A stretch of DNA of 64,000 nucleotides, taken from Fimicolochytrium jonesii. Lineage: Eukaryota. The DNA is taken from positions 992,001 through 1,056,000 of the forward strand of contig NW_026515668.1 of assembly GCF_025526975.1 (NCBI RefSeq), written 5' to 3'. The notes under the pieces were generated by a model that was given only the letters and a program-made list of their open reading frames with translations, did not search any database and was not told where the DNA came from. The position numbers and the translations under genes were made by a program. Of this stretch, positions 36,070 through 58,162 are shown piece by piece (the first letter of the stretch is position 1; each line of letters starts with the position of its first letter).

Positions 36070-36181
36070 CTTTTTACACAGCCACATATACCCCAGTAAC
36101 AGTATTTCTTTGAGACATCTAATGAAGGAGTTTCTGCCTAACAGCAGCACATTAAGCTTGCTCAGGCAGAAGTGTCGGTAA

Positions 36182-36239: not shown

Positions 36240-36240
36240 A

Positions 36241-36362
36241 TATGGGGAGCCATCCGGGTCATAAATACCCGCTGCGAAATTTTTGGGTCGGAGCGCGCGT
36301 CCCCACATCTTTTTCGAGAAGTGCAGGATTCCGAAACTTTTTTTGAACGTTTTGACAGTGAC
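36241..36362 (+). repeat. Left terminal inverted repeat
   Basis: tatggggagc...gggtcataaa...; 36305-36345 is a perfect 41-bp inverted match to 58014-58054. Confidence 0.92.
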
Positions 36363-36405
36363 TGACAGCGGGGCTGGACATGAGAACACGGACCGAGGTG
36401 GGCGC

Positions 36406-36439
36406 TTACGTAAGAGTTTTCTGGGAAACTCTTACGTAA
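36406..36439. promoter_or_regulatory. 34-bp palindromic site 1 (14-bp perfect arms, 6-bp spacer)
   Basis: ttacgtaagagttt-tctggg-aaactcttacgtaa. Confidence 0.8.
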
Positions 36440-36588
36440 TACATTGAACAACCTGATAACCCCACCAAAGCACACTATTCGCACTTTTTCCTGACCTTCC
36501 CTCCCGGTCGCAAAATGTGTAAATACATGCCATCCAATTCCATAGAAAAGAAAGGCTATGGAACAGAGTACACAAACAACTTGCCAAG

Positions 36589-39578
36589 CTATGGAATCTG
36601 GAACCCTCCATCTCTGCATAGCCACACTGCATACCACAAGCGATCCGCTAGGTGGTCCGCATCTCCGAAACCTAGATGCAGCTCCAACGTGTCACTGCAA
36701 GTACGAGACGAAGGCAAATGATCCCCTTCATGCTGAGCGATATCCACAACTATCCTGTCCTTCAGCGGCAGTGCACGGCTTGACGTCCAGAAGAACAGCA
36801 GGTCCCGCAGAGACATGCCCCTTCTAGGTGCAGTGAGCGCCATGCGAAACCATCCCTTCACTAGTTCTGTCTTTTCCTCTTTACGGCGATCAACAATGGG
36901 AGGCAAATACACAATCTTCTGGAACAGCTGGTCGACATCCAGACGCCAATTGAATAGATGAAACAATACCGCGCATGGCGTGCCAGAGACGAAGTCGCCG
37001 ACCGAAGCGATCCCTTCCTTGTTCTGATGGGTGGCTGGGCGACAACAGGTGTACAAGACATGTTTGGTTAGATCTTGAGCAAAAGCGACGGGCTTGTCCG
37101 ATTCCGCTTCAATGGGGTAACCAAAATGCTGGCACAACGTGGTGACTCTGGAGGTATGGCAAGGGGGGGGGGGAGGGGGGGAGAGGAGTCGTTCATGTCA
37201 ATACACCACGACCACAAGAAGGAAAAGGAAAGATACAGAATAGCAGCGGGCAACGCACTCTTCCTCGACTTTTGCTGTCTTTTGTGCAGGAGTCAACGCG
37301 GGGCCTGAGTCGATCGCCATGTCGTCCATCCGGTAGTCCGTAAGAACCTTCACAACCCATCCAAGGGATCGGTTGAAACGTGATATCATCTTCGGTGATA
37401 TAAACCGGCAGGACATTTCATTTTCCGGATGACAGAGAACATTGATCAGGATGGGTGAGAGGGTCTCTGGAAACACATTGCCGTGCAATGCAGAGTGAGC
37501 CAACAATCGCCCGAACCCCCTGAAGTCCAGGTTTGCTGCCGGGATGCCGGACACCGGAAGGAAGCACTGTGCACCTTCCCAGTGAGGGTCGCTTTCTACA
37601 GTGAAAGTCTTGATGGCAATCTGGAAAGCTTCCTTGGTGAGACCGCCCCCGATGTGAAACCCCGCATCCACGCCGTCCTCGCCCACGAAATTGAACGATG
37701 ACTTAAACGTGGCGTTCTTTACGCCCGCGCACCAGGCCCAGACGGCATCCGCCACTGAATTCTTTATTCGACCATTCGGGAGCGTTACCAATTCACTATG
37801 AGTTACTATAAAGTGTTGAAAAATGGCACTTGTCAGTTCGACTCCACCCAAAGGACAGCGAAGACCCATTCTGATTACGCACTGTTAACCGTCATGTCCA
37901 CATCCCTGTCTTTGTTCAACCCATTGAGACGGTCACAGAAATGATTATACAAATCCTGATAAGACCAAGGGTCCTGTCCAGGCAGACATTGCATGCAACG
38001 ACCTTCGTCGCTGAGGTCCTTGGCGGTTGACTCTGCGATGCTCCCAGAAAACAGGTCTTCTGCATCACGCGTATGGTAGAAAGGGAAACGGGTCTTGTCT
38101 CGGGTGGAGGGCACTGCGGGCGCGCCGCTACTGGGTTCACGGGCCAGCAGTTCATTTGGTTTCGGCGTCGGTAAGATCAGATCATAAGATTCAGGCGTCT
38201 TAACGTACTTCGAGGCGTCGGCAGGGAGGGATGGCTGTGTGACCCGTCGCTTGGTCTGCAATCTTGTCCCATACGTGTGGCGCATGCCGGCACTGCCAGC
38301 AAATCCACCGAAGACGGACTGTGTATCCTGGACGGTGCCGCTGGACGTCGCTGGCACACTCCTTTGTTCCACCGTGTTGGGACACCGAGCATATGCCTCT
38401 GAAATGCGCTGTTGCGCTAGGTCGATGACAGCGAGTGACACCTCGTTAGGAAAGTGCCCCCGGGCGAACCCCATGCCTGGAAAGCATAACCAATTCTGGT
38501 AAGCCATTGCAACTGCGTGTGCACCGCCGTCATCTACACATCTTGCGCCGTTCCCGACATCCATCAGGTCCTGAAGAAACTGGAGAGCGCCCTCTCTTCC
38601 CTTCTTGTAAAAACGCAAATCTTTGTCTGTCTTGTCGTAGTAGCCGGTTTGCTCCTTAAGAAACATGCTTAAACACTGGTCGACCGGTAGTCTCTCGAAG
38701 GGCCTTGCGTTCTCCTCCGCTATCTTTCGTCTGACTTCCTCCAAGGTTGGAGGCGATGGGATTAAAAATGCATCATCAGGAGGTGAAGACAAACAAGCAG
38801 GCACGAGATGAGCTAGTTTTGGGAAAGCATCATCCGGAGGTGAAGGTGAACGAGCAGGCACATAAAGAGGTATGTTTGGGAATGCCAGACCTGGAGGTGA
38901 AGGCGAAGGAGCAGGCACGATATCTCCAGCTAACGGCGGAGCTCCCGGTTAGGCGATTCCCGTAGGTAGGCCAGGTGGGGGTTTCCTAGGGGAGATGTTC
39001 CATGTGCCACTTTTCGGCCCACGCAGGGCTTCAGACGTCTCCGTTTCGTCCTCTGGCAATCCCCCCTTTCCCTTTTCATATATGGCCCCAGCCCTGCTGC
39101 GGCCCACGGCGGGGATAATGCCTTGCATCATGTTAGTGAAGTCAGCCGTCTCACCATCCGAGTCCGACTCAATGGGAGGCCCCATGGCAGCGCTCTTGAC
39201 AGGATCAGACTGAATGTTGTTGTCTGGAGGGGGGGCACCGAAGTATCAGTAGAGGGGCGGGAGAGTGTATTTTGAGTACAGCGACATACAGTGCATAATC
39301 TCAAAGGCTTCCGGAATCTTCTTTGTCCGAAGGGATTTCTTATCGTGAAGAATGGCATCCCGGATCTCCATATGGATGAAGGCGTACTGGAACGCCTCTC
39401 GATCGCCCCACACGGAGCAATGGGGTTGAACCCAAATCCCTTTGTCTATCTTCTTCGCATATTCCCAGAAAATGTCCCACTTAACATCGTTTGGCTGCCA
39501 GCCGAGCGGACTGATATTCTGATGCCTGCGTTGTGAGAATTCCAATGCCCAAGGGGAATCTGGAAGATGGCGAAACAC
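36589..39578 (-). pseudogene. HECT-domain E3 ubiquitin ligase (transposon cargo); introns 37148-37258, 37806-37882 and about 39224-39290; one in-frame TAA at 38949-38951; 5' end unresolved
   Basis: N-lobe FVGEDGVDAG...GGLTKEAF...FRGFGRLLAHSALHG..FPETLSP; C-lobe LLFFWTSSRALP...LPSSRTCSDTLEL...GGF with the catalytic Cys. Introns restore the frame. Confidence 0.8.
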
Positions 39579-39800
39579 TGCACTGGTAGCGCCGTATATC
39601 TCGTTGTGTCCCCATCCCTTGCCTTCCGCTTTTTGGCTTTCGGTCGCCCCTTCTCGTCCCTGCTCAATGTCAAGCCAATGTCAAAGTAAGCAGGTGAAAG
39701 GAAAGCTAGGCCCGCACATGTCTCCAGAGACATTAAAGTTCATACGCTGAAGGGTTGTGGTCCACATGCGGTGCTCTTTTGGTGTGCCACGTGTTCGTTA

Positions 39801-40562
39801 CTACCGCCACTCGGTCTGGCTGATGCTTAGGCTCCCACATCGTTTTCCCTGAAGACTTATGACAACTGCTTCTCCACAATACGGTGGAGTGGGACTTTCC
39901 GTAAAATCCAAATTTGGGTGAGGAGCGTAGGACACCGGAGTACTGGCAGGCGTTGGTGGCAACGCCAGACCTGCGTGACTGGGTCGTGGTCCGTGGTTTG
40001 TCGCGTATTGCTGAAGCTCGGAGATGCGAGGAGTCAAAAGCATGGGCAAAAGCCCACTCAACGGCGTTTCTATGCCTCCCATAGCTCTTGGGGGACGGGT
40101 TGAGGTCGGACTAGCGTAGTGATCTGTGGAATCCACGTGTCCAGTGGGCCGAAAGCCCGCTTGGCTTTTTGCCTGAGCCAATGCCTGGACTTGAGCGGCG
40201 TAAAGGGGTCCGGTCGTCCTCATGGCAGCTTGGAGTTCCGCAATGGTGAAAGGTAAAGCAGCCGCCATCGCCGGCCCTAGCGGTGGGCGTTGCTTCAATA
40301 CCTCGAGCCATACTTCGACGGGGAATGGGTTTACACCAGCTTTGCAGTTTTCGAGCGCTGAGTCGCCATTGTCGACGAGGATGACCCCGGCGCAAACCTG
40401 GACGTCTTTTTCGGTCAGTGGCATCGCGGTACCGGATGCAGTAAAAATATATGGCAGGTATCGAAAACGGCACCGTTTGTGATGCCGAAAAAGGACCTCA
40501 TCGAAAAAGTGGAAGTTGAGGTGAAAGAAAAGGATCGCACACGTGATATCGATTATCCACAT
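39801..40562 (-). CDS. Hypothetical ORF, possibly 5' exon(s) of the HECT gene
   Basis: 253-aa ORF on the same strand directly upstream of the HECT exons; no family recognised. Confidence 0.35.
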   Translation of the reverse strand: MWIIDITCAILFFHLNFHFFDEVLFRHHKRCRFRYLPYIFTASGTAMPLTEKDVQVCAGVILVDNGDSALENCKAGVNPFPVEVWLEVLKQRPPLGPAMAAALPFTIAELQAAMRTTGPLYAAQVQALAQAKSQAGFRPTGHVDSTDHYASPTSTRPPRAMGGIETPLSGLLPMLLTPRISELQQYATNHGPRPSHAGLALPPTPASTPVSYAPHPNLDFTESPTPPYCGEAVVISLQGKRCGSLSISQTEWR

Positions 40563-40673
40563 ATTGCGACGGGTCCTCTCCTAATATGGTCCTAAGTAAA
40601 GGATTGTTACGGGAAAGTAGAGCATGCACACACAGCAGTCGAGGGCCCGGGCAAGCGGGAATTCAGAGTCCTC

Positions 40674-41200
40674 ATGAAGAGACGGAGACACGAAGGCTTG
40701 CGTTATATGTCCGATGTGCACCCTGAGGGTGGTGGCTCACCGTCGGCGTCGAAAACTTCCGCCCTTCACTTTGGAGGCATACCAGGTGACCCTCGGGAGC
40801 GAGAGACCTACCTAGCAGAGGGACAACGGTCGGAGTTGGAGGAGGAGCGCAATTCGCTGCCACCGATGTACATTCAAGACAACAGACACAGGCGCCAACG
40901 ATTTCAGAAGCGGCGTAAAAATATCCTGAAGAAGGTGCGTCCTGGCCACTCTGTAAGGGGGACGGAACGCCAGTTTAATGACCAGACTTTGTGGAGCAGG
41001 TCCGCGAATTGGAGGAAATGACTGGTGCGCACGTATGGACAGTGTTGGTCAGCGAAGATGGGGTTAAGATCGATGTTCATGCGTTGTCCGCTTTCGAGAT
41101 AATGAACGATGACACCACCCGGTCGTGTTTACTGCAACTCGTTCACAAGAGGCTACGATGGAAGCAACGGGACGTTGCTCACAGCACTGCGAGGGCGTAG
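40674..41200 (+). CDS. Divergent SRF/Mcm1-type MADS-box protein (transposon cargo); intron 40935-40999
   Basis: Spliced YIQDNRHRRQRFQKRRKNILKK|VRELEEMTGAHVWTVLVSEDG aligns by eye to the MADS consensus FIENKTRRHVTFSKRKHGIMKKAFELSVLTGTQVLLLVVSETG. Confidence 0.78.
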
Positions 41201-42075
41201 GGAGTTCCGTTACATCCATAGCACATGGTAAACGGTAACGGCCTGCCGAAACACAGACAGGCGAGAGCTGAAGCCGGTGGGAGCCATTGTCATGCTAGAA
41301 AGCAGCACAGATCACTAGTCGTACTCGGCCCCGCTCCGTCATACGCAATGGCCGTAAGATCACACCTGAGGAAGCCTGTGGCCACCGTCCCGGTTCAGAC
41401 AAAGAACTATCCGATTCGGTTGTACATAGGACGAAGCAATTTTTTTTGGGTGCGCTGGCATCCCAGTTCTTAAATTCATCGGCGTCCGCAAAGGGCAGAT
41501 GTTAAATATGTGTTGCAAGTTATCATGTAAAACCAGTTCGTACAAAGTGTGTGAACAGAGCTTTTCAAGTAACAGTACCAAAGCGAATCCGGGTCACAAA
41601 TTGAGTGGCTAGCATTCGAACAGCCCCTCCTTGCAAAAAGGAATGGGGCGGATATGTACCAGAATTTGCCATTTCGCTAAGAGATCTCTTTTGTTTACGT
41701 ACAGAAGCGCATGCTCGCAGGATACCTAATATATGTGAACCCCAACTGCCTAACTACGTGGTACTGCCTAAACTGGCGGAAACAGCTGCCTACATTGTTG
41801 GTAAGCATAAGCGTGATTTCCATCATGTGGATATTTCAAGACTGCGGATAATGAATTCAGCCGATAACTTTCTCGAGACGTTCTCAGGTACGCGGCGTGC
41901 CCAGCGTGAAGGGGTTGATGCCCCACTGTGGGAGATCGCGAATGTTTCAGCTACTTAGCGCTGCTATGTCGCTTGACGCTATTGTAAAAATTTGACTTGC
42001 TGAGAGCCTTGCTAATGTGAAGCAATGCATTTGCGTCTGCCGCCGGGAAGTCCGTAATACGGCCCCGCACCTTGG

Positions 42076-43737
42076 TCAACTCGGTTGTGACAACGACGCC
42101 ATCAAAAAGGCGTAGTGACTGCCCTTCCGTGCAAGGTCCGTCATGTTCTTGACGACATCCTGTATGACCTCATCCATTCTTCTTTCCGCAGCCAGGGAGA
42201 TGGAGGGCCAGTCGGGGTTGATATCCCCATGAGAGGAGATGGAGGGCGTGACAGGCCCCAGTAGCGGAAGGTGTTGTGGGGGTGGGGGCCTCTGTGGGAG
42301 CCTGTCCGTAAGGCCGGCATGCTCCACAAGCGTGTATAAAAGCTCAGGTCTCCCTCTGAGGTACAGTTTGAGCCAATCCGACACCTCATTCTTCTTCGGG
42401 GGACGACTGTTGATTTGCTCGTATAGCTCTACAAGGCTGCTCTTGAACTCTGTCCAACTGATGAACACGTTAAGGAGAGCGACCCGCCTGCTGGCTTGCG
42501 CTGTCGCGAACATTTTCATCGAGAGCGTAAGATTCTTCTCGGCCACTGTCGGGGGGTCAGCCGTTGGGGTTGATACCCCGGTGATTGGAACCCTTAAATA
42601 ACTCTCCTGATCGGTGCCCGTATACTGGTCCAGACCCAAGATGAGCAAGTGTGCAGTGGTATCCAGCGTCATGATGGCCCCCGCTCCTCGGTAATATTCG
42701 CGCAGACCTGCGGCGATATCATCTGGTGTCTTCGGCTGTCCTGATGGACGGCGAGAGATGATGCCTGCTGTCGAGGACGTGACATCCCATGCTTTGCGGG
42801 CTGCGTTGGCAAAATAGCCGCTGGCTGGTTCGCGATCTTCTGCGATGGCCACAATAATACTCTGGGACATTGTCGCGTCTAATTCTGGCGCAACTTGCGA
42901 GACGGGCCGCACACTGGAGTATGAGATAGGGCTGACATCCCCTTGTTGCAAGTGGTGTTGATGGATTATAGACCGTGTGTTGTCTACCGGTTCAGGTGTA
43001 AGCACCTCCGTTGTCACGCTTGTGCGGGAGACAGTTCGTCCATCTGCGTCTTGTTCTTCGATGATCTCCGTTTTGCGCAGGTAGGGCCAAGGTCCGTCAC
43101 TCGAATCCGACACAGAGGCACCGGATTCGCTGCTGGCATGCCTCGAGGGGGTGAGGTCGTTGTTCGGGGCGCCAGGCGGAACGTAATCATTGGTGGCCAT
43201 ATCAGATGCGTCTTCATCGGGCTGGAAGGTCTGGCTGGGGTTGATACCCACATACTTGTAGGAGGGGATATCGTTTTCGGGAGATACATCCATCTCAGGG
43301 GTGTATCCTCGATGGAACAGGGGATCATCCATGTGTTTTTGTCCGTGGCCTTCGCCTCCGATGCCGCTATCGCATCGGAAAGAGCACTGGTCGCTCTTGC
43401 TGGGGTTGATATCCACATCATGTTCGATGTGAATATCGTTCCCGTCGCAGACCTCCATCCCGTCCATCCCATCGTTGTCATCGCTCTTGCTAGGGTTGAT
43501 ATCCTCATCATTCTCAATGTGAATATCGTTCCCGTTGCAGACGTCCATCCCGTCCAGCCCATCGTCGTCGTGAGCGAGGGCGTGTTGGATGGGCAGAGGG
43601 AGGGCGTGTTGGGTGGGCAGAGGGAGGGGGTGTTGGGTGGGCAGAGCGACGGCGTGTTGGGTGGGCAGAGCCGTTGCGTTGGCGATTTGCAGAGGCCGAA
43701 CTCGCCTTGACGCCCGGTTACGCTCTCGAATCTGCAT
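42076..43737 (-). CDS. Hypothetical 553-aa protein with internal repeats (LPTQH x4; DGMxVCxGNDIHIE x2); transposon cargo
   Basis: Long uninterrupted ORF; probable extra repeat-rich 5' exons at 43800-44350; no family recognised. Confidence 0.55.
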   Translation of the reverse strand: MQIRERNRASRRVRPLQIANATALPTQHAVALPTQHPLPLPTQHALPLPIQHALAHDDDGLDGMDVCNGNDIHIENDEDINPSKSDDNDGMDGMEVCDGNDIHIEHDVDINPSKSDQCSFRCDSGIGGEGHGQKHMDDPLFHRGYTPEMDVSPENDIPSYKYVGINPSQTFQPDEDASDMATNDYVPPGAPNNDLTPSRHASSESGASVSDSSDGPWPYLRKTEIIEEQDADGRTVSRTSVTTEVLTPEPVDNTRSIIHQHHLQQGDVSPISYSSVRPVSQVAPELDATMSQSIIVAIAEDREPASGYFANAARKAWDVTSSTAGIISRRPSGQPKTPDDIAAGLREYYRGAGAIMTLDTTAHLLILGLDQYTGTDQESYLRVPITGVSTPTADPPTVAEKNLTLSMKMFATAQASRRVALLNVFISWTEFKSSLVELYEQINSRPPKKNEVSDWLKLYLRGRPELLYTLVEHAGLTDRLPQRPPPPQHLPLLGPVTPSISSHGDINPDWPSISLAAERRMDEVIQDVVKNMTDLARKGSHYAFLMASLSQPS

Positions 43738-44367
43738 AAGTCAGAAAGAGGTTAGAAAAAACATACTCTCACGCCTCAAAGCCACACCCCTTCTGTCTCT
43801 TACCCGCCTTGGCGTATAATAGCGTTGCCTGAGGTACGGAAAGGATCCATTCCCCTGTACTCAACCACTTTGCCACGCGTCGCAGGCATTATGGTTGCTG
43901 TTACACAGGAAAGAAAGGACGTAGTTGTTACTGATAACCGGCCGTGACATATTCCCTTTTGTGAAAGGGCTCGGGACTCAGCAAGTTGATACGGGTTTGG
44001 TTCCTTGCGAGAGGGACGCTGTTGGTAGAGCCGTTGTTGGTGGGTATCGGAAAAGGGTGGTCGTTGTCCCGCTGTGATTTGCGAGAGGGACGTTGTTGGT
44101 GGAGCCGTTGTTGTTGGGTATCGGAAAAGGGTGGAAGTTGTCCAGTTGTGGTTTCAGGGGTTTGCGAGAGGGAAGCTTTTAATACAGCCGTTGTTGTTGA
44201 GTACCGGAAAAGGGTGGAAGTTGTCCAGCTGTGGTTTCTGGGCCTGGAAGGGAAGCAGATGCGATATGTGTGGAGAGAAACAGATGCGATATTCAGTCCC
44301 TTTCCCCCGCTCCCAGCTTCCTTGTGACGCCTAAAACCGGAAGAAAGGGGATGCATGCATGTGACAG

Positions 44368-44641
44368 TGTAACGTCAGAGGAAACGTAGACGATATTGGG
44401 CCCTTCTGAGGGGGCTGAGAGCAGTGTATTGTAGTGAAGAAAAAGTAAGAAGCACTTTGCAGCGGCCGCTCGACTGACAGCTTTATATATGGGCTGCCAG
44501 TGGGGCTTGCGTGGCTTCAGTGAGGCTTGGCGCCTTATGTAATGTATCAACGAGAGGTCGGGTGGCCAGCCCGGGTCTCAGATCAAGTAGAAGTAAAGAG
44601 ATATAATATGAAATACAAGTGAAGATGAGATATCCCCGACA
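44368..44641 (-). repeat. 3' LTR
   Basis: Direct repeat of 49267-49540 with about a dozen substitutions counted by eye. Confidence 0.95.
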
Positions 44642-44989
44642 CCTCCCTCAGATCCTGAGGAGGGCGCCGAATAAATAAGAGGTGAACTGCGAGGGATATG
44701 TGAAGAAAGGGAGAGCTCATATTCATTTTAAAGTGTTGACGCACTCGTTCATTTAATAGTGTTGACGCACTGTGTGATGTGTGTGTTTGAGGCAAAGGCG
44801 TCCCTAAGCCAACGTCGTGTGTGATGTGTGTGTGTGTAAGGTCGGTTCTTGCGTCGCCGCGCGTGATGTGATGTAGTTTACATTGCTATTGTCAGCGGTG
44901 TGATTGATAGTGAGCGGTTCTTGCGGCGTCGCGCGTGTGATGTGATATGAGATGCTCTATGCTGTTTGTCTCCGTATCCACAAAGATTG

Positions 44990-47800
44990 TGGGTGAGCTT
45001 TTCGCCATCGTTTGTAGGCAGGCGTGTAGCGGAGTGCGGATTCGAGTTCCCAAGTAGGGTCAGGATAGCCAAGCCATTTGACTAGAAGATTTCGTACGGC
45101 GCGTCGCTCGTCGATGATATCTTCTACAACCCATTCAGGTTGTCCGCGTTCTTCGATTGGTGGAGGAGATTGTGGAACTGCACGTGGCGGATATTGCTCT
45201 TCGCGATGTGGTCGTAAAATATCGACGTGAAAGACGGGCCAGATGTCACTGATCTTTGATGGTGATAAATCGAGTTCGTAGGTATCAGGCAGGATGTGCT
45301 CCCAATGCGATGATTTTGAATGGTCCGATCCACGTAGCTGAGTATCGAAGTCCTCTCCAAGCGTCCACTTCTACGTTGATTCCTTGTCGATTTAGATCGA
45401 CGAGGTCGCCAATTTTGTATGCGATTGGCGGCGTTTGACCTTTGTCGTGTTGACGTGCAAATTGATCTTGCGATCTCTGAAGGTTTTCGCGTACGATACG
45501 GGCAATTTCTTCCTGCCCTTTCTTGAAGAGTTCGATTTCGTTTCGATCTACAGCTCGAAGTTTGAGTTCTTGTCCTTCGAGTGTTGGATTCCAACTTGAG
45601 AGGATTGGAGAGCGTCCGAGATCTACTTCGAATGTCGATAAACCTTCATATTCCTCCCTTGGAGCGGTGTTGTATGCGAAATCATACTCTTGTAGCTTCT
45701 CCACCCAATTGGCTTGTCTTCTGCTCAAATGAGGTTGTGTTTGGATGAATTCAAGTCCCTTGTGATCGCTAAAACATTGGAAGTAACGACCGATGAGATA
45801 TGGTCGGTTGGCGACCAACATCTTGACAAGAGCTAAGAGCTCCTGTTCAAGCGTAGGATATCGAGTTTCTGCGTCCTTCTTCTTTCTAGAAAAGAAGACC
45901 ACAGGCCGGAGCCGAGGTAACTTCTTCCATTCTCCGACGAGAGTAGGCAGATTCGTAGGGATTGCTTCATCGCCAGAAGGTTGTCCAATCCAGCCAGCGA
46001 TAGCGTAGCCTGATGAGTCGGTATAGACGTAAATCAGCTTGGTTTCATCGATTGTTGCTAGCGTAGATGCATTGATCAACGCTTCTTTCAAATTTTGAAA
46101 TGCCTCTTGTTGCCCAGGACCCCATCGAAATTTGACTTTCGAAGATTGAATACTTGATAGGGGCAGAGCAATGTCCGAATAACCTTGTACGAAGTTGAGG
46201 AAGTAATTCGTGAACCCGAGAAAGCTTTGGACTCCTTTTGTTGACTTTGGAGTAGCCCAATCATTGATAGCTTAGATTTTCGAGGGCGCGATGCGAACAC
46301 CATGTCTTCCGACAATATGTCCACACCATTCAAGTTCTTCTTTAGCCCATACGCACTTTGAAGGCTTGATGAAAAGGGCGTGTTCTTCAAGTTTCTTCAG
46401 GATACGATCGACGTGTTCCCGATGTTCGGCTAAGGTCTTCCAGAAAATGAAAATGTTGTCCAGGTAGGTAGCGAGGAATTCGTTGTAATCTTTATGGAAG
46501 ATCTTATTCATAAGACATTGAAATGAGGCAGGTGCGTTGGTAAGCCCGAATGGCATAACCAAATACTCGAAATGTCCGAAGCGAGTTCGTGTTGCCGTTT
46601 TTTCTCGATGTTGTTTTCGGATAAGAAGACGATGGTATGCTTCTCGAATATCGAAAAGCGTAAACCATTTACAACCTTGAATCCGATCCCTCATTTCACG
46701 AATATTGGGTAAAGGAGTGCGATCTTTCTTGGTGACGGCGTTGAGACCTTGGTAGTCCCAACAGATGCGTAATCCGCCATCTTTCTTTTTCGCAAAGACA
46801 ACACTAGCTCCCCAGGGACTTGAAAAGTGTTGTATCCATCCTTTTTCGAGCATCGAGGTGATTTGTTTCTTGAGTTCAGCGAGTTCTTCTTTGTTCATGT
46901 GCCGAAGAGGTTGCCAAACAGGTTCAGCACCTTCAGTGAGTTCGATCTTGAAATTATCTTCTCCTCGATCAGGGGGTAGACCTTCTGGTTCCTTGAAGAG
47001 CGTATTGACGTATTTATTTAGGATATCCTTGAGATGTCCTGGATTTCCTTTAAGCTCTTGAGGAGCGTCTGGTATTTTGTTAAGAGGGAGGCGACAGACC
47101 GTGTCTTTTTCAAACTTGTTCCGTGGCCAAGCCTTATTAAATCGCTTGGAAGTCATTTCTATGACTTGAGGATTACGAAGGGCATCGGCTTGAGCGAATC
47201 GAGAGACGTAATGAGGTGCGGCTTGTAAAGGACGTGTATCCACAGGTTTGATGATTCGAACAGGTCAAACGGGTCTTTTGTCATAGACCGGATCTCGTTG
47301 CACATCGGAGTAAGGATTGTTGTGTTTCGGGATGTATTTGACGTCTTCCCAGTTTCTTGAAGTTCTTCCGCACTTGATGGTGACAGACTGCGGTGCGTTT
47401 GGCCTAGGGCCATAATCGGTCCAGCGAAGAATAGGTAAGGTACTCATCGAGAATTGTTCAGCGTAATTAAAGAAACGCCAGAAAGGCATTCCAATAATAG
47501 CGTCGTAAGCCAGATTACTGACTAGCCAGGGAAGTTGTCCAACTAAGAAAAGCGACTGAGATTCGAGATCCCATAGATCTAACTTTTCCGACACGACCGT
47601 GTCGAGAATCATGTATGATTCTTTGTCGGCCAGCCATATCTACTTCGGTTCGATACGTTTCTTGGGAAACTTGTGCTTTTCGACAAATGTCTTGTCAAGG
47701 AATAACCCAGTTGCGCCGCTATCGAAAAGAACACGAGCAAACTTGTTTCCAATGCGACAATGAGAGACCCAGAGTCCAGCAGACAGTGGTCCAAAGGCAG
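44990..47800 (-). pseudogene. pol remnants: aspartic protease, RT, RNase H, truncated integrase, chromodomain
   Basis: RT SSPWGASVVFAKKKDGGLRICWDYQGLN...YLVMPFGLTNAPASFQ...YLDNI; RNase H YTDSSGYAIAG...EQELLALV...SDHKGL; chromodomain EWVVEDIIDERR..LVKWLGYPDPTWE. Several frameshifts. Confidence 0.9.
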
Positions 47801-48059
47801 GTTGATCGGTAGGATTGTATGTTGTAGGCCAAGCAGAGCTACCGAGGGGCTCTATCGACCTTGGAAAAAACTCGAAGATTGATTTGTAGTAGTATTCGTG
47901 GTATTTGCAGAGTTGACGGCGTCATTGAGAATTTCCGTAATGCGTGACCCAGCATCAACCTGATTGGCTGAACCTTGATTAGGTTGGCAACTGCGCTGCA
48001 GAGTTTGAGCGCCACAACCGCGCTCTTGAAAACCGCCGCGTCGGTTCTGGGTTTGCGAG

Positions 48060-49173
48060 CCTTGCTGTCAATTTTCGGGATTTGACCGGCATCCAACTCT
48101 CCAATGTCCCATTTTATTACAAAGGGGACAAGGAGTTGTTGGACGTTGACGAGGAACATGAGTAGTTTGCCATTGTCCACGTTGACAAAAGGGCTGTTGA
48201 CGTTGGTAGGGACCTTGATCTGTAGTGAGACGACTCACTCCAGGGGGATAGTATGACGTACTGAGGGCATTGAGCCCAAAGGTCATATCATCTAAGTCTT
48301 GCTTGAATTCCGTAATTCAAGGATTGGTGTAAGGGGCAAATCGTCCGCCACGACAACCGCCACGACTACCTTGACCGCGGCTGGCTCCACGGCCGCCACA
48401 AGCACTCGATGCCGAGGCAATCGAACAAGGGGTATTGGCTTGGTTGCCGTCAGTGACCCCATGAGCTACATGAGCACGACGGGCTGCAGTGATAGCTTGA
48501 TCGAGAGTGATAGGGGTGTTGATGTTGGTAGTCTGCGAGACTTCGAAGTTCGTAACGGCTTCAACGAGATAATGACCGATTACTGTATTCTTGAGAGGAC
48601 CGGCCTTGAAGTATCGAATCTGATCGATAAGGGGAATGGTGCCTTGGGTGTTATCGAGACGGTGAGCAGCTTCGAGCTCATTATTGGTGTCTTGAAACTC
48701 TTCTCAAGAGAGTCGTCGAGCTTGAGGCCGGAGAGCTTGAGCTCAATAGTATTACGCAAGTTGCGAGGATAAAAGTGAGCGACAAGAGCCTTTTTAAAAG
48801 CTGACCAACTTGCGGGAGCGCCGGAGGCGTAAGTCGTATTGTACCACTCGAGGGCAGTACCCTTGAGGTAGGTAGTGAGCGTAGGGGCGTACTCTGCCAT
48901 AGTAAAGGGTATGGCATTGGCAGCTCCAGTACCGTCTGTTCCAGCTGCTACAGCCGGGACAGTGAGAGACTCGAGAAAGTTGTGGTGAGACGTAACGAAC
49001 TCTTCGATCTTTTTGGCAGCTTTGGCGCCATCGTATTCGACGAGCTTGTTCTTGCAAGCGTCCATAAGAAGTCTGAAACGTTTGGCTCGTTGGGTTTCTT
49101 GAGTAACAGCACGCTCCTGGTTAGCGAAAGCAGCTGCAACAGCCGCAATGATAGCTTGAGTCTGTCTGTCCAT
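48060..49173 (-). pseudogene. gag remnants with CCHC zinc knuckle
   Basis: YLKGTALEWY...SWSAFKKALVAHF (retrotransposon gag); CPLCNKMGHWRVGC knuckle at about 48085-48130. Confidence 0.85.
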
Positions 49174-49266
49174 TCTTGCTTGTGAACGTGTGTAAGGGCG
49201 ACGTGCGGTAGAGGGGCGACGTTGACGGTGAATGTCTTGGTGAGGCGGCGGTAGGTGGTGCTACCA

Positions 49267-49540
49267 TGTAACGTCAGAGGAAATGTAGACGATATTGGGC
49301 CCTTCTGAGAGGGCTGAGAGCAGTGTATTGTAGTGAAGTAAAAGTAAGAAGCTCTTCGCAGCGGCCGCTCGACTGACAGCTTTATATATGGGCTGCCAGT
49401 GGGGCTTGCGTGGCTTCAGTGAGGCTTGGCGCCTTATGTAATGTATCACCGAGAGCTCGGGTGGCCAGCCCGGGTCTCGGATCACGTAGAAGTAAAGAGA
49501 TATGTAATGAAATACAAGTGAAGATGAGATATCCCCGACA
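49267..49540 (-). repeat. 5' LTR
   Basis: Direct repeat of 44368-44641. Confidence 0.95.
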
Positions 49541-49585
49541 TGACAGTCCCCCACTCCGACGAAAACGCGCTGTCGAAATTGGTAC

Positions 49586-49619
49586 TTACGTAAGATTTCT
49601 AGGGAGAAACCTTACGTAA
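49586..49619. promoter_or_regulatory. 34-bp palindromic site 2 (internal)
   Basis: ttacgtaagatttct-aggg-agaaaccttacgtaa. Confidence 0.8.
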
Positions 49620-51403
49620 TGACACCCTTCTCACCTCCCAAGCTTGCATTACCCCTCATGCAGAAACACACGCTTTTCCCCCCTGACAATCTTTATCCCA
49701 CTTTCACACCACAAAATACGTACCAAGGTGAAGAGGATTTACCAGAACCTTGGCAATCACGCCAGTCGCGGCTCCCGCTGGACCATGCTCACCACACACT
49801 TTGTCCCCTGCTTTTTGATCCCCCTGACACAATTCTTCAGAGCTCAGTGGAATAGGTCGCCGTTGCCGACCTACCACCCAACTGCACCATACTGGATGAG
49901 CGGCCACGTGGATGGGCAAGTGCCTCTTCGCCGACTGCTTCTGTGCAACCATTCAGCACAGACTGGAGTATACGCACAAGGTCAAGAAGGGGAACAGCCG
50001 ATACCTTAGCGGATGGGCATTGATGTAAATCTTTCCTACCCACCACTGTATACGTTGATCAGAACAACAAGCAAGATGACCGGGGCGACATGGGTTCGCA
50101 ACAAACAACTCGGCGTGTAACGGAAATGATAGGATGGGAAATGCAACTGCAAGCGAGTTTACGCAAGTCGTACACATAGCCTATTGTAGTTGCTCTGTAA
50201 GAACGTAAAGCAAACCCAACCACCAGCGAATAAGGGCGTATCTCAAACCTGTAGGATGCTGGCGCGCGAACTGTACCGTTGCCGTGCAGGCCCTGAATCA
50301 CTTCTGTATGTACATACCTTCAAATATCATGTGAGCATTTCTCACCAACCCAACCTGACGGGCGAAGAACCCTCCATCCTGGTGTCAGAAATGTGTTGTG
50401 AACTCAAACGCGTTTCCATCAACCCTTGATATCCTAGTTCAGCTTACCCCAACCCTAACACTAGCCTGGCCATTGAAACACATGTACGCCACATGTTCTA
50501 GCTCCCAGTCTCCAGCTCAACGGCAATCGCGTTTGGCCCTAAAAACGTTGTCTTTAGACCCCGGGGGATCGATTCTCCGGATTCCCTGCCCATTTTTTTT
50601 CCTACCCCTACACAAAACCCCGTTTGACGCAGCTACGCTATATAGGTTTGTGGATAAACTCATGGACAACGAGATCCGTAGTATCGATCATCGATAAGGG
50701 GCCTCACTGTGAACCCTCACTGTGAACCTGCCAGTTGGAGACGCATTATGTACATTTAAAGCGGTATCATGTACGCCCTTCCAACTCCAAGTTGATGCAG
50801 GGCGATGACAGTCGGAAGCACAGCCACATACAATACCAGCTCCAATGCGAATAGAAAGCATGGCCACTTATATACCTCCGCACGTCGGCCGTAATGAGCT
50901 GAGAGGGTACATCAGTGGGTACTTTACAAGTGTCCTCTACAAGCTATGAGACGGGTATGACATAGCACGTATAACTCCACAAGCTATTACGTACGGATGA
51001 AAGAGTGAAAGCGGGTGAAACGGGTGAAAGCTCTGTATATGTAGGATCCATGTGAGAGCTATTACGATGCATGTGAAAGCTATTACGATGCATGTGAAAC
51101 AGTGCTCCACACTGAGTCCACAGGCATTATGCATACGTGCAATTCATGCATGCCATTATGCCATTACATTGTAAGCCGTAATTGGATGTGAGTCACTCTA
51201 AGGCAGGCTCTCCACACTTCCTGCCACACTTCCTTTGAAACCTGCCTTGAAACCGCGTCTATAAGCCCGTACACTCCCTATATAAGCCCGTACACTCCCA
51301 TCCTTCCCCTACCATTCGCCCACACCCCCTTTCTTCCCCAAGCATTCGCCGACCAAGGTACAACTATTCCACAGCCATACGCCGTCTGTATGTATCGTAC
51401 GCT

Positions 51404-51825
51404 GTAGGTAAGTGAAGCTGCCACCATGCGTGAATATCGGGTGGAAAGGATTGTGCGTGCTGTCCAATCTCGGTTAGATCCTGAGAGCTGTCACTCACCG
51501 ATCTCGGGACTCGACCCAGTTGAGATTCCTAAACCTTCGCCGATCAAAATACACACCCCAAGCCGTAGGTAAGTGAAGCTGCCACCATGCGTGAATATCG
51601 GGTGGAAAGGATTGTGCGGGCTGTCCAATCTCGGTTAGATCCTGAGAGCTGTCACTCACCGATCTCGGGACTCGACCCAGTACAGATTCCTAAACCTTCG
51701 CCGATCAAAATACACACCCCAAGCCGTAGGTAAGTGAAGCCGCCACCATGCGTGAATATCGGGTGGAAAGGATTGTGCGGGCTGTCCAATCTCCGTTAGA
51801 TCCTGAGAGCTGTCACTCACCGATC
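51404..51825 (+). repeat. Tandem repeat, 161-bp unit x about 2.6, in the 5' leader of the UPF1-like gene
   Basis: Units start gtaggtaagtgaagc at 51404, 51565 and 51726 and are near-identical. Confidence 0.95.
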
Positions 51826-51847
51826 CCTTTTTGTTCTCAGCCCCGCC

Positions 51848-54800
51848 ATGGACAGCGCCGACATGGACGTTGTCGAGTACGTTGACCATTTCGATCACGA
51901 CGACAACCTCAGCGACAACGTCAACGACAACCTCAGCGACAACCTCAGCGACAACCTCAGCGACAACCCGTCGGATGCTGAAACACTCGAAGCGTCAGAC
52001 CTACCCATCTCTGGATCAGCCGCATCAACGGCAACAAATCGTCCGGCCCTGCTGCCCCCAGCCATTCTCGAACCCTTGATAACGCAAGTCCAAGGTCGCC
52101 CGTGTTGCGTTGTTTGCCACAGCGAGCTGGCCGACGTCTCCGATCTCTTCCGATGCCGCCTGTGCGATGTTTATCTTTGCAACTGCCACACTCCCTCGAA
52201 GCAGGACACCATGCGTCTCCGGGTGATGCACGTTGTTGCACACATGCGGATAACAGGCCACATGGATCTCGATTGGATCTCCCTTACCCAAACGGCCGTA
52301 TCAACGGCAACTCGCATCCAATGTCAAGACCACCCGCACGTTACCAACCCCTACACTCTCTTCTTTGATACCCACACCCGAACCATGAAGTGCGACAGCC
52401 ATGCAGGAGACTCGGCATGCATCCTTTCGGAGTCCAACGGCGTACAGTGGCTCGGGGGACCCATGGGATGCCAGCCCATTGCTAAGGAACCCCGTAGCAA
52501 GGCCGCGGTTGAGGAGCTCCTCCACAACTACCTACTGCTCTCAAGGAACCCGACGACGTTGAAAGAACCCCAATGGGTACAGGCTCTGCAAGTTGCAACT
52601 GAGGAAGCCGCAGCGGATCTCTTGTTCCACACCCGAGTGGTCGCGTATGGCAACTGGGACGCATTCAGGTTGTACCAGCTCAGTCAGCTCCAACGGGAGC
52701 GGATGGCTTGGCGCCGGGAAGTGAGCATCCTCAATGTATGCATAGCTTGGAAGCGAGACAGCGAAAACGTGGAGTGGACTGTTGGAACTCTCACGTTTCC
52801 CGCCTCCGCCTACAGCGGTTCCTTGACCGCCCTCCGCGAGATCGACCCAGAGGTGCGGATCGTCCGCGCCAACAGCTCGCTGAACGCCTCGGGGACCCTT
52901 TGCTTCCCAGGGGAAGTCGAAGAACGCAATCGCTTCCCACCCCCCGCCATCCCAAACGCCAATCAAGACACCTCCCTCCCAAACGCCGATCAAGGCACCC
53001 TCCAACCCTTCACGACAGCATACGTCAGGGTTGCCAAGCAGATCATCGACGATATGTTTGTCGGCGCCTCTCTCTACCATGTCCTTGTCCCGGAGGTGCA
53101 CGTGGACCTCCTGAAGGTGATGAGCGCCTTGAAAAACCCCGACAATGTCCCCGAGGTCGTCCAGAAGATTCTTGTGGCCCCACCCCAAAAACACCAATGG
53201 TTACTCTCCCCAGACCTTGCGATCAAGCAATGGATCAGAGGGAGTTGGCCCCGCTTGACCGACGAACAGGTCACCGCCGTCGCTCTGGCCGTCGACCCCG
53301 TTGATAGAGGATCACCTGCATTCGGCATCATGGGGTGGCCTGGTGTCGGGAAGACAGAGCTCATCGGCTGCATCATCGATCGACACGACCATCAACTGCC
53401 CACATCTCCACGACACGGTCGATAACCAAAGCACAGATGCCAATCAATTCGATAACCAAAGCACAGATGCCGATCAGTGCCCTGATCTCCACGACACGGT
53501 CGATAACCAAAGCCCTCAAGACGGAGAGAATGGAGGTCACATTCTCGTCACCAGCAATAGCAACGCTGGAGTGATGGTCGTGCTATCCAAGATCATCGGT
53601 TCCATCGGGTCCGAAGCTGTCGACCTCAAATCCGACATCTTCTGGGTCCAGAAATCCATCTTCGATCGATCTTCCATTCGCGACGAGGCCCTTCTTGCTC
53701 TGAACAAGGGCCAAGCCTATCAAGATATCCTCCAGCAGCTCATTGATAATGGCGAGCCCTTCCCGGTTCTGCCGTTCTGGGGCGCAAGCATCAACTCCGG
53801 CAGCTCAATCTCCCAGGGGTATCAACCCCACCCTTGCTCGGTGACACCCCGGGAATGTCTCGAGCTTCTTGAAGCACACCGCCAGCGGCCGCTCGTTGGC
53901 CTCAACATCGGCAAGTTCAGATGGGGCCTCAGCCGGATCAAGGCTACCCTTTTTTTGAAGAAGAATATCTTCGTCGCCACTGTGGGCATGTGGAAAGTAA
54001 CTCTTCCTTTCGTGAGGAAAATTGGGGTCAAGATCGGAACTATCATCGCGGATGAAGCCTCCGCCATGTACGAAGCGTCCATCGCCGCCATGGCCACCCC
54101 CAACCCCACAAACATCGTGCTCCTTGGCGATCCCAACCAGCTCAGACCACACGTGGAGACTCGGGGCGGCGTTGCGAACGCCATTGCTGGCTCCCTCATT
54201 GAGCGAATGGCGTACACCAACAACCATCCCCACAAGTGGCTCCGCACCCAATTCCAGCTTTCGCCGAAGCTGTTAACCCTGCAGAACGTCCTTTTCCTCG
54301 GCAACCACACCAGTCAACATCCCGCGGAGGAGCTGAAGACCCGATGGCAAACCACCCCTACGGGCGTATCAACGGCGACCTCGTCGACCCAAACCACCCC
54401 TAGGAGCGTGTCATCGCTGACCGAGGAGCAATTGGCTTTCATCCACGTTGCAGGCAACAAACAACCGCATCCCACGATTTCGTCGTCGTACCGCATCCCA
54501 CAATTTCGAGGAGAATGAGACGACGATAGAAGATGGCGAAGCTGACGATCTTCTCGCTTTCCGTTCATCGGAACCCTTGGGTGTGGCTAGCCCATACAAG
54601 AAGCTGAAGCTGTCAACGTGCGACATGTTTCAAGGCTCCGAGTATGATATTGTCATCCTCTCCTTGGTGCGGGCCGCAAATGGGTGTGACATCGGCTTCC
54701 TTTGTGAGGCCCAGCGGGTCAACGTGGCTTTTTCTTGCGCCAGGCTCGGCCTCTATGTCTTCGGGGATCTGCGGGTGGTCGGTCGCGCATCTTGCATGTG

Positions 54801-55753
54801 GTTGATGATTGCCCTAAACAAGGACAGCGTGTGGTCCTACAACCAACCCGTCTCAAACGCGAATCAAGGCACCTGCACCGTCTCCCACGCCGATTGCTTT
54901 CTCAGGATGGAACCCAAAACCGTGGAAAACAGTCTGAAAGGGAAGCAACCCGCCCTTGAGGACTTCCCCGAGATTCGTTGGATGTGTTGCTTTGGCGAGC
55001 CTCCGGAGCCGGAGCCATTGTTAAAGGATGAAGTGTGGTGGAATCACCTGACGACGCAGTCCCAACAGACGGAGTGGCTGCAGTTGATCGCCAATGAAAT
55101 GGAGATCATAGCCCCGGCCCGCACTCAACCCGTCTCACATGCAGACCAAGGCACCCGCTCAGCCAACACCACCCGCGCTCAACGCACCCGCTCCGCCAAC
55201 ACCACTTATCTCGTCTCACACGCCGATCAAGGCACCTGCTCCGCCACACACCACCCGCACTCAACCCGTCTCACACGCCGATCAAGGCACCCGCACGCGA
55301 CCCGTCCCTCTGCAAAGGGCGCAACCTTGCCCCGTCAGGCTGCCTTCGCTGCCTTCGCTGCATTTGCTGAAGGTGTGGGTGACCGGTGATCGGGGACTCA
55401 CGATCCGCAGCCAAGTCGACGATGGCTATCGGGTCAAATTTTGTCCGGTCCGCCGAATTGAACTCAACGACCAGGAACGCTTCTTGACGTTCCATTTCTC
55501 GGAAGGAACTGAGACGCTGAACGTGGAAACCCCATCAATCAACCCGAGTCAGCCGATCAAGGCCCCCATATGTCCATGGCAGCAAACCTGCATGGATCTG
55601 GTTGCCGCTGGCTCCCTGAGGGTCAAAGTTTTGGAAGAATGCATCGTCAACAAACAATTGAACGGCTTCATCAACCTGACCAGACGCCACAATGAAAACC
55701 AACCCCCGGGAATCAACATCAGCCATGCACAAATCCTCACGCTTGAGGATTGA
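51848..55753 (+). pseudogene. Divergent UPF1/NAM7-like SF1B helicase with N-terminal Cys/His (CH) zinc domain; frameshifted (transposon cargo)
   Basis: CH-like CVVC...CRLCDVYLCN...HVVAHMRITGH...CQDH..TNPYTLFF; helicase motifs GWPGVGKT, ILVTSNSNAGV, IIADEAS, LLGDPNQLRP, LRTQFQ, TCDMFQGSEYDIVILSLVRA, RVNVAFSCAR. Frame breaks near 53380-53420, about 54500 and about 55300. Confidence 0.78.
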
Positions 55754-56117
55754 AATGTATCTTTAGATACTTAGGTAGACTATCTAGCATAGTAGGGGCA
55801 AACATGGCGCACATCGCCGGAATGTACTTTAAAAGCGCAAAGTTAGGAGTAGCATGGGCGCATGGAATATCAACAAATACGATATATGTACAAATAAGTC
55901 CATGGTCAGGGTTGAATCAAACACTTCATTCCGAGCGTTCCTCTAGAGAAATCGAAACAAAACACGCTTTATCACACATGAATGCCGCCGCCCGCCCTGT
56001 CCTTTCTCGAGATGCAACGCTATCCTGAAACCGGGAGGAAAGAAGAAACGCCGTCAAGCAAGGGAACCCTCTGCAGCATCCAGAAACGTTGCTACCATGT
56101 CACGCAAAGTCTTTGGA

Positions 56118-57763
56118 CTATGCTGCAATGCCATTCTCTATCATATGAGTGACGAAGGCCACCATATCCATGTACGGTTGCCTACCGTGGGTGTCTTCGA
56201 AGATTCCCGCGGGGATTGTAGCTCGGAGGAGGTTGTACTGTCCTTGAGTTACAGGGCACTGTATCTTCTGCACTTTGACATGGTCGTATTTGTCTTCATC
56301 ACTGTCCTCATCGTAATTCCCACCCTATAGTCCTCCCATTGCCCTTGGAGTTCATTGGCAACATGCAATACATCGGTGTCGAGAGAGGCATCTCCGCTCA
56401 ACCTTTTCAATTCCATCCCCTCAATCCAGAGCTGTCGCGGGGTTCGGTTGTTTGTATAGGGACCCTTGATACTATGGTGATTCCATTTCCCTACGAACTC
56501 GTACGAGTACATTTGAATGAGGAGCAGGTATATGTAGTGCAAACACCACATCTGCAACTCGTCATCATGGGATAAATCTCCGTTATGTTCCAGCGCGCGC
56601 CAGCTGGCGCAAAATATTCTACCGACATTTCTTTGCACGTCCTTCCAGAGGCGTTCGATGCGTTGATTGTGAACGGACTTGCCTGTCAGGAATGAGGTTG
56701 GGTTTCCTCGAGTTACCTCCATCATGAAGTCGCGGATGCCGAGGTTTTCGCTGCCTTTGTCGCATCGGACGCGTTGGGGACAACCCAACTCCGCAAGGGC
56801 TTTTACAAAGGGTGCCAGCACGGTTTCTTTCCGGTTATTGTCCGCGACTTGGAGATGCGTAATCAACCTAGTTTTCCCATCGAGGCCACCATGAACGACA
56901 AATCTCCAGTTGATCAGCTTGTGCCATCCATCCATATGCCACAGTGACTTAGGATGAGCCACCCAGTATTCCACTCGCTCAATCTTCTTTTTAGTGCGGG
57001 CATCGACTCCTGTTGGGTCCACCAGGCCAAGTACATCCCAAACCCGTTGCCTCGTCACGCGGTAACCTCGCATCCTCAGGTCACCTTGCAACAGTTGGCC
57101 TCCGTCATGAACCACGAATGTTGCCTTCAGGTCACGGACGAGTAGTTCCAAATCCTCGTCCGATATCTGCCACCAATATTCGCGCCGGCTAAGATTTAAG
57201 CGTTGAAGCCGCCGCTTGATTGTGGCCTCACTGACGCCCATATACATGGCAATCACGCGGTTGGAGAGGCCCTCTCTGTACCAGTGGAGCATCTTCGTTT
57301 CGTCGATCTCTGCGGGCGGCCGCCCTCTTGGCCGGTATTCCTTGTCCTCTTCCTGTTCATCCGAGTTGTCGAATGACTCGTGCCAGCCGGCGGCTGCGGC
57401 TGGGCTCCATACGCCGGGCGGACTTTCAAGTCGCTCAAGAACGGTCCCCACCTGCCACCGGGCTTGATCCAGAAGGATGGTGAAGAAGTTCGGGTTCCGG
57501 TCATCCTCGCCGCCAAAGTGACCTAGAAGTGTAGACAATCGACGGTGGTGTTTGTCGACAACAGTTTGCTCCACATATTCCCCATGGTCTCTCCTCTCCG
57601 CTATGTCTCGAGCTTGGCGCATCATATCAAGTATGCTTTCTAAGAACCATTCTGTTTCGGTCCACTGCCACCCGCTCAGAATAGAAGCTATACGCAAGGC
57701 CTTGCAGGTCAAGAACAAGTCGATTACCCGTCCGTCTTGACAATAAAGCGAAAACTTACCCAT
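56118..57763 (-). CDS. IS3EU/IS481-like DDE transposase (HTH + integrase core); probable 1-nt frameshift near 56315 cuts off the natural C-terminus
   Basis: HTH GLSNRVIAMYMGVSEATIKRRL; triad WHMDGWHKL / RVRCDKGSEN / GKSVHNQRIERLWKDV; WNHHSI..RTPRQLW. An alternative frame continues YDEDSDED..VKVQKIQCPVTQGQ...GRQPYMDMVAFV to a stop at 56118. Confidence 0.88.
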
Positions 57764-57942
57764 GGTTTACAGTTAGGGACAGCTTGACCCTGAGGATTCG
57801 TTCGATGTGCTTAGTATGAGCGATGGCTATAAGAGTATTTGTCGCACTTTGGGTGGTCGGTTTCGCAAGGCGTTAGCACAGATAGCAGTTAGTAACAGAC
57901 CTCCGGCTGTTACCAGCTGTGAGTTATCTGTAAATTGTCTGC

Positions 57943-57976
57943 TTACGTAAGAATTTTCCTGGGAAATCTTACGTAA
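57943..57976. promoter_or_regulatory. 34-bp palindromic site 3
   Basis: ttacgtaagaattttcctgggaaatcttacgtaa. Confidence 0.8.
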
Positions 57977-57996
57977 GCAGAGAGACAAAACCGACT

Positions 57997-58118
57997 GTCA
58001 CTATCAAAACGTCCAAAAAAAGTTTCGGAATCCTGCACTTCTCGAAAAAGATGTTGGGACGCGCGATCCAACGCAAAAAATATCCAAAATCCATTTATGA
58101 CCCTGAATGCTCCCCATA
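57997..58118 (-). repeat. Right terminal inverted repeat
   Basis: Reverse complement of 36241-36362, ending gctccccata. Confidence 0.92.
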
Positions 58119-58162
58119 AAAGCCTTCTATGGCGTTGTCGTTGCCCACTACCGTCAAACATT
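58119..58162 (-). repeat. Inverted copy of 35924-35967 (right half of the transposon target site)
   Basis: aaagccttctatggcgttgtcgttgcccactaccgtcaaacatt is the exact 44-bp reverse complement of helicase last-exon sequence 22 kb away. Confidence 0.92.

Follow-up and report, generated by a model that had tools for sequence, protein, structure and literature searches.

A probable multi-gene IS3EU-type DNA transposon, now decayed, in the chytrid Fimicolochytrium jonesii

The window analyzed here is a 64,000-nucleotide stretch of the genome of Fimicolochytrium jonesii, a Spizellomycetales chytrid (assembly GCF_025526975.1, contig NW_026515668.1, positions 992,001–1,056,000 of the forward strand). 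Between positions 36,241 and 58,118 of this window lies a block bounded by two terminal inverted repeats (TIRs), which is probably a DNA transposon of IS3EU type. The left TIR (36,241–36,362, + strand) starts with TATGG, and the right TIR (57,997–58,118, − strand) ends with CCATA. Self-comparison of the window aligns the pair over 122 bp at 84.4% identity (E 1e-31), with a perfect core of 41 bp that occupies 36,305–36,345 in the left repeat. The TIR-to-TIR span is 21,878 bp, or 16,699 bp once a nested long terminal repeat (LTR) retroelement of 5,179 bp is subtracted, and the transposase gene begins 233 bp inside the right TIR (ATG at 57,763). A Pfam scan of 97 open reading frames (ORFs) in the window, including the element's ORFs of at least 90 residues, returns from left to right a HECT domain on the minus strand, a weak SRF-TF match, a 554-residue ORF of no family, gypsy-type domains, AAA_11/AAA_12, and rva_4; Rfam gives zero matches. 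These data agree with a preliminary description of the locus, made from the sequence alone, which had reported TIRs of 122 bp with a 41-bp perfect core, TAT...ATA ends, a span of 21.9 kb (16.7 kb without the retroelement), a DDE transposase starting about 230 bp inside the right TIR, and at least four further genes with introns or repeats. In the present data these are the HECT gene, the AAA_11/AAA_12 gene, the gene with the weak SRF-TF match, and the repeat-bearing 554-residue ORF.

The IS3EU-type DDE transposase (56,118–57,763, − strand) combines a helix-turn-helix (HTH) region with an rva_4 integrase core and has D278, D335, and E370 as its DDE residues. Pfam matches the core at E 2e-62, and the HTH is matched too. 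Homologues number 107 among 7,997 candidates, are at most 45% identical, and come from animals, Glomeromycota, and one basidiomycete; a 38-row alignment of them shows no variation at D335 and E370 and hardly any at D278. A quick tree of 98 rows, drawn from unnamed and database homologues, puts the transposase on a long branch (1.84) with an unsure placement. The conserved last ~55 residues of the protein are found in another frame, at 56,121–56,324 (profile of 37 homologues, E 8e-4 among 1,624 ORFs). Scans of viral contigs with the transposase alignment, the TIR-core pattern, and the helicase described below found nothing.

The published accounts cited here and below, as far as their accessible parts go, give IS3EU elements target-site duplications (TSDs) of usually 6 bp (PMC10045372) and describe fungal IS3EU families as having TAYGG..CCRTA ends, TIRs of more than 30 bp, and TSDs of 6 bp (PMC12730594). 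The TATGG...CCATA termini conform to both the general TA..TA pattern of IS3EU/GingerRoot elements and the fungal one, the TIRs are well above 30 bp (122 bp, 84%), and the enzyme is an IS3/IS481-like DDE protein with no match to the integrase zinc domain (HHCC). Because the termini, TIRs, and enzyme fit IS3EU but the TSD differs, we call the element IS3EU-type and not a confirmed member; the earlier description of an IS3EU-like DDE element is supported to that extent.

Two host genes that converge on the element have their 3′ ends on either side of it. The left neighbor (29,528–36,069, + strand), called the outer helicase gene below, is large and encodes both a UvrD and an SF1B (AAA_11/12) helicase together with a PD-(D/E)XK-like stretch, whose motif was recognized by eye; the right neighbor is a DHQ-synthase-like gene. 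The insertion site belongs to a patch of ~110 bp of templated DNA, whose copies differ from their donors by one or two mismatches. Outside the element, this patch includes a 44-bp direct copy (36,173–36,216, + strand) of 35,781–35,824 with 2 mismatches. The left flank (36,214–36,239) is a 26-bp inverted copy (− strand) of 35,965–35,990, and the right flank (58,119–58,162) is a perfect 44-bp inverted copy (− strand) of 35,924–35,967; the two form the halves of the empty site. When the element and a four-A run at the left junction (36,237–36,240) are removed, the flanks join into 64 nt that are identical to the opposite strand of DNA within 35,924–35,990. The apparent TSD is AAA, repeated at 58,119–58,121, with one extra A left over, and not 6 bp. 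The arrangement argues that the pre-insertion site is kept inside the window and that the block between the TIRs came as one unit, since its flanks rejoin contiguously. We also considered 35,965–36,239 as a miniature inverted-repeat transposable element, a reading ruled out by its right arm, which runs on into 58,119–58,162.

Toward the right end lies a divergent gene for an SF1B helicase that appears to derive from UPF1 (51,848–55,389, + strand). It has a Cys/His N-terminus, a 1B-like region, and helicase motifs, with frame breaks near 53,375 and 54,490. Pfam detects AAA_11 (E 5e-6) and AAA_12 (E 9e-15), the SF1B motifs are spread across three frames, and the arginine of motif VI is replaced by Cys (SCAR). 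The N-terminal half matches an atlas cluster with the domain order UPF1_Zn_bind, 1B, and AAA_11 at 0.93 (175/256 features), a value to be read against shuffled proteins, of which 4–10 in 100 reach 0.9. Its zinc domain has no Pfam match, NCBIfam gives only generic helicase matches, and a single-sequence fold of this half has a mean pLDDT of 34. The C-terminal piece has UPF1 as its best match in the PDB (E 4.6e-9), other SF1B helicases following narrowly behind. A search against 1.84 billion protein representatives returned 34 proteins at E ≤0.001. Two of these matches are strong, and both are from F. jonesii on other contigs (214 and 178 kb): P0229, which is 91–93% identical, and P0230, at 43%. 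The remaining 32 are at E 1.7e-6 or weaker, and those examined look like generic SF1B helicases. When the helicase core was first compared with longer proteins by a word-indexed search, no match had emerged; the exhaustive search then gave these. P0229 is in frame where the window gene has a 4-bp duplication, which confirms the first break as a lesion. The inner and outer helicases share no BLASTP similarity at E 0.01. Judged from its sequence, the gene seems to be a divergent, broken UPF1 derivative with no close relative outside F. jonesii, and a multicopy, species-restricted, fast-diverged helicase would fit cargo borne by a transposable element. Just upstream of the gene lies a tandem repeat (51,401–51,825, + strand) of 2.6 copies of a 161-bp unit; the units are 98% alike, and each opens with a splice-donor-like GTAAGT and contains an ATG.

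Farther left, a small gene (40,674–41,200, + strand) contains a divergent MADS-like motif that is interrupted by an intron of 65 nt, as predicted (40,935–40,999). Its SRF-TF match (E 0.0015–0.006) lies below the curated cut-off: exon 1 covers positions 1–22 of the 48-position domain with 18.4 bits against a cut-off of 26, and exon 2 has no match. The PDB offers no convincing MADS protein match either, so the MADS-box factor named in the preliminary description is a weak identification. A match to this gene in one related metagenome locus (L013, E 0.026) falls in the tail outside the MADS-like motif and was dismissed as a chance hit. ORF-X (42,076–43,740, − strand; 554 residues) contains internal 24- and 90-bp repeats, has no Pfam or NCBIfam family and no usable atlas match, and gives a single-sequence fold with a mean pLDDT of 36. 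It is followed by a decayed Ty3/gypsy LTR retrotransposon of chromovirus type (44,368–49,540, − strand), whose 274-bp LTRs differ at 12 sites and enclose a gypsy-type chromodomain, RNase H, reverse transcriptase, protease, and gag. TGACAG is duplicated on its two sides (44,362–44,367 and 49,541–49,546); the retroelement inserted exactly at the TGACAG of an internal subterminal motif, with a 6-bp duplication.

At the left end, a multi-exon gene for a HECT-like E3 ligase (36,589–40,424, − strand) keeps the catalytic Cys motif and contains an in-frame TAA at 38,949–38,951. Pfam recognizes the HECT domain at E 2.3e-7 and misses the N-lobe exon. The exon model is partly uncertain: the best-looking intron candidate (37,882–37,829) leaves the frame broken, and 41- and 77-nt alternatives restore it. 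The neighborhoods of related transposases, surveyed in the best 80 of 551 metagenome stretches that encode one, contain a recurrent HECT-like ORF. A second ORF cluster occurs in 30/80 of these loci, and Pfam HECT matched 6 of its 14 members tested. A profile search raises the number of loci with a HECT-like ORF downstream of the transposase to 39/80 (26/37 among those with at least 2 kb downstream), a count that is partly circular because the profile was built on the same loci, the Pfam result of 6/14 being independent. All 39 downstream ORFs are convergent with the transposase, and six loci have upstream matches in either orientation. A profile of the nine longest HECT-like ORFs, run against 1,624 ORFs of the window, matches only the two HECT exons (E 2.8e-5 and 0.026), and profiles of the other ORF clusters from related elements match nothing in it. 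Complete elements could be delimited in nine related loci, taking the outermost TIR pair of each; all have TATGG..CCATA ends and measure 2.8–7.8 kb, with a 6-bp TSD present in six and absent in three. Since the HECT-like ORF recurs in 39/80 loci, the ligase is probably not a captured regulatory gene, as had been proposed, and is probably the usual second gene of this transposase family and not host cargo; an independent capture would still be conceivable. In an A+T-rich clade that groups with transposases of Glomeromycota, HECT-like ORFs stand upstream of the transposase in either orientation (L012:2130-8833, L034:1280-2272, L035:277-1854). Five other loci (L002, L008, L013, L025, and L045; e.g., L025:14763-15401) share a conserved exon of ~200 residues with no Pfam family, which in four of the five lies inside complete elements on the HECT strand and probably encodes the N-terminal domain of that gene.

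A further signature lies just inside the TIRs. At the left end (36,363–36,439), TGACAG is followed by a pair of TTACGTAA motifs 18 nt apart, and at the right end (57,943–58,000) the same pair is accompanied by a minus-strand TGACAG. The 64 kb contain six copies of TTACGTAA, always in pairs with this 18-nt distance, the third pair (49,586–49,619) lying inside the element; none of 100 shuffles reproduces this. The internal copy (49,541–49,619) has the TGACAG spacing of the left end, and no TIR core adjoins it (score 17–18 against a shuffle mean of ~20). The 8.6-kb part to its right, in which the transposase faces a convergent UPF1-like gene, resembles the canonical two-gene layout. The internal motif, the poor agreement between the outermost 40 bp of the two TIRs, and the reversed orientation of the HECT gene suggest either that two related elements fused or that an internal inversion took place.

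Taken together, we consider it likely that the block is a single TIR-bounded, IS3EU-type cut-and-paste element of a chytrid, carrying a broken transposase, a HECT-like gene, and extra passengers. Several observations weigh against this interpretation. The 6-bp TSD usual for IS3EU/GingerRoot elements is replaced by AAA plus one A, and the outermost 40 bp of the two TIRs agree at 27/40 positions compared with 33–40 in the nine complete relatives. Transposase and HECT gene point in the same direction here, unlike in the relatives, where all 39 downstream HECT-like ORFs are convergent. It also matches the transposon HECTs at profile level only, with no pairwise match at E <100, and its C-lobe exon matches the host protein UBR5 as well (E 1.3e-3). 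Relatives of the helicase, the MADS-like gene, and ORF-X were found in none of the 80 related loci. Finally, 25 formal GT–AG introns could span the break in the transposase; none has the GTRHGT-type donor used by other introns in the window, so the transposase likely carries a C-terminal frameshift. With frameshifts in transposase and helicase and an in-frame stop in the HECT gene, this copy is likely non-autonomous or inactive by now.

Other explanations share part of this evidence. The block may be a one-off composite of two smaller elements, a possibility we take seriously without favoring it: a right unit (49,541–58,118) with the UPF1-like gene and the transposase, and a left unit with the HECT, MADS-like, and ORF-X genes, would have lost their inner TIRs and moved together at most once, with no 17-kb family behind them. 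The internal motif with its left-end spacing, a right unit that mimics the canonical transposase plus convergent second gene, outer TIR ends matched at only 27/40, and the non-canonical HECT orientation all suit such a history. Yet no TIR core stands next to the internal motif (17–18 vs a shuffle mean of ~20), the 41-bp core remains perfect, the contiguous flanks indicate that the block came as one unit, and an inversion would equally explain the HECT orientation. A different objection is that nothing transposed here and that an element-bearing copy of the 3′ end of the neighboring helicase gene was pasted in, together with 26 + 44 bp of its old flanks, by template-switching repair. Both flanks are indeed templated from 250–390 bp away, one directly and one inverted, a 6-bp TSD is lacking, and a perfect 80-bp templated duplication (18,033–18,112/29,413–29,492) occurs upstream of the same helicase gene. 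We hold this to be distinctly unlikely: it requires a 22-kb copying event and an unseen insertion allele, the donor gene end is uninterrupted here, and the missing 6-bp TSD is not explained by template switching either.

It is also unlikely that the internal genes form, as the preliminary description had it, a functional cargo set of host regulators, captured by the element and used to interfere with ubiquitination, transcription, and RNA surveillance in the host. The UPF1-like domain order, the catalytic Cys motif of the HECT gene, the intron-containing MADS-like motif, and the multicopy helicase would agree with this idea, but HECT is a common partner of the transposase clade, the genes are broken in the window copy, and the MADS match is below its cut-off with no convincing counterpart in the PDB. 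Short perfect duplications at the junctions could hint at an assembly artefact, which we regard as very improbable: the flanks rejoin coherently, the nested LTR element is flanked by a separate TSD, the patch copies are one or two mismatches away from their donors, and the neighboring SNF2 gene can be aligned with a named protein from end to end.

For the single IS3EU-type element that we prefer, the following course of events may be envisaged. The transposase of this copy or of a sister copy would have bound the TIR cores and the paired TTACGTAA subterminal motifs, and the block would have been pasted between the two convergent host genes, where a short stretch of DNA had been laid down by templated repair. 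One economical route linking patch and insertion would be excision, templated repair, and local re-insertion. The size of 16.7 kb likely stems from the fusion or inversion mentioned above, with the internal motif (49,541–49,619) as its scar. Mobility would rely on integrase-like cut-and-paste through the TIRs and could now occur at most in trans, as in broken copies of Styx. The passengers most likely served the element and not the host. By analogy with the TET/JBP passengers of rust IS3EU families, which are proposed to counter methylation, the UPF1 derivative would keep the transcripts of the element from nonsense-mediated decay by shielding or processing them; such protection is a doubtful proposal. 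Rather doubtful, too, is the existence of a chytrid family of ~17-kb IS3EU-type transposons equipped with a MADS-like factor, a HECT ligase, and a fast-evolving UPF1 of their own that would act as a decoy against nonsense-mediated decay.

The wider window has several features of its own. The perfect 80-bp direct duplication has its two copies 11.4 kb apart, and the one at 29,413–29,492 immediately precedes the outer helicase gene, which thus has templated patches at both ends. A polyubiquitin gene (23,117–24,449) is the source of repeat families D1 and D2. Intergenic motifs of the CGACAGCGCG type, 12–16 nt long, occur at 29,374–29,390, 49,564–49,578, 60,464–60,479, and 63,369–63,380 and are possibly promoter elements. 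An SNF2 exon 26 kb to the left of the element is 100% identical to an F. jonesii protein and 60–64% identical to the next matches, from Powellomyces, Thoreauomyces, and Geranomyces. To the right, at 58,368–62,005, the DHQ-synthase-like gene and an O-methyltransferase gene are divergently oriented, and an SDR gene comes next; the set resembles the first steps of gadusol/mycosporine synthesis.

Starships carry a tyrosine-recombinase (DUF3435) captain at the 5′ end and are typically far larger. The F. jonesii element resembles them as a multi-gene mobile block in a fungus, but it has a DDE transposase and long TIRs, and none of the 97 ORFs scanned with Pfam matches a DUF3435 captain, in keeping with the distinction from Starships drawn in the preliminary description. 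The same scan found no protein-primed PolB and no capsid or ATPase of Polinton/Maverick elements. IS481EU elements have a single protein, TIRs mostly shorter than 50 bp, TSDs of ~4, 15, or 25 bp, and parabasalid hosts, and differ from an element with several genes and 122-bp TIRs in a chytrid. A related layout is that of the metagenome elements (L008, L013, L025, L045, and others), which have a homologous transposase at most ~44% identical, TATGG..CCATA TIRs, and a HECT-like second gene; they are smaller (2.8–7.8 kb), have the HECT gene convergent, and lack helicase and MADS genes.

Among published systems, again as far as the accessible text reaches, IS3EU/GingerRoot elements share the TA..TA termini, long TIRs, and an IS3/IS481-like DDE enzyme with an N-terminal HTH (PMC10045372; PMC6839031). 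GingerRoot captures gene fragments of 84–1,654 bp, averages 8.6–8.9 kb, and usually has a 6-bp TSD, in contrast to 16.7 kb, four gene-sized passengers, and an apparent 3-bp TSD here. Styx of Zymoseptoria has an IS3EU-related transposase and four ORFs, including putative DNA-binding proteins, and its broken copies are mobilized in trans; it differs in being 7.9 kb long, active, and multicopy, with a 6-bp TSD and other passengers (PMC10853768). The TET-bearing IS3EU families of rusts and Tuber have TAYGG..CCRTA ends and, placed between the transposase and the gene for a second enzyme, additional genes, and their passengers are proposed to counter host silencing. These 27 families measure 5.6–13.4 kb (lengths taken from table cell sizes) and carry TET/JBP and alpha-kinase genes, compared with HECT, UPF1-derived, MADS-like, and ORF-X genes in a chytrid (PMC12730594). 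Elements of three to four genes and 8–13 kb were thus already published (Styx and the TET/JBP plus alpha-kinase families). The element exceeds its measured relatives, but the term giant overstates this: at 16.7 kb, it is ~1.25 times the largest IS3EU measured (13.4 kb) and represents no new giant class, and DNA elements of 16–20 kb are known in other superfamilies (PMC6431247). A survey of five chytrid taxa recorded very few DNA transposons (PMC5751038). We found no relevant published report of a HECT or ubiquitin ligase with IS3EU elements or transposases, although Repbase reports and most subscription journals may describe a HECT second gene, none of a UPF1 derivative in a DNA transposon, and no relevant one of MADS genes with fungal DNA transposons. 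As it stands, the locus presents one decayed copy, moderately larger than its known relatives. Read as an IS3EU-type element, it extends the multi-gene members of this group to chytrids and adds a putative UPF1 derivative to their types of passenger; if intact sister copies exist, one could test cleanly with them whether DNA transposons bring along genes that counteract RNA surveillance, in the way that rust IS3EU families are proposed to counteract DNA methylation.

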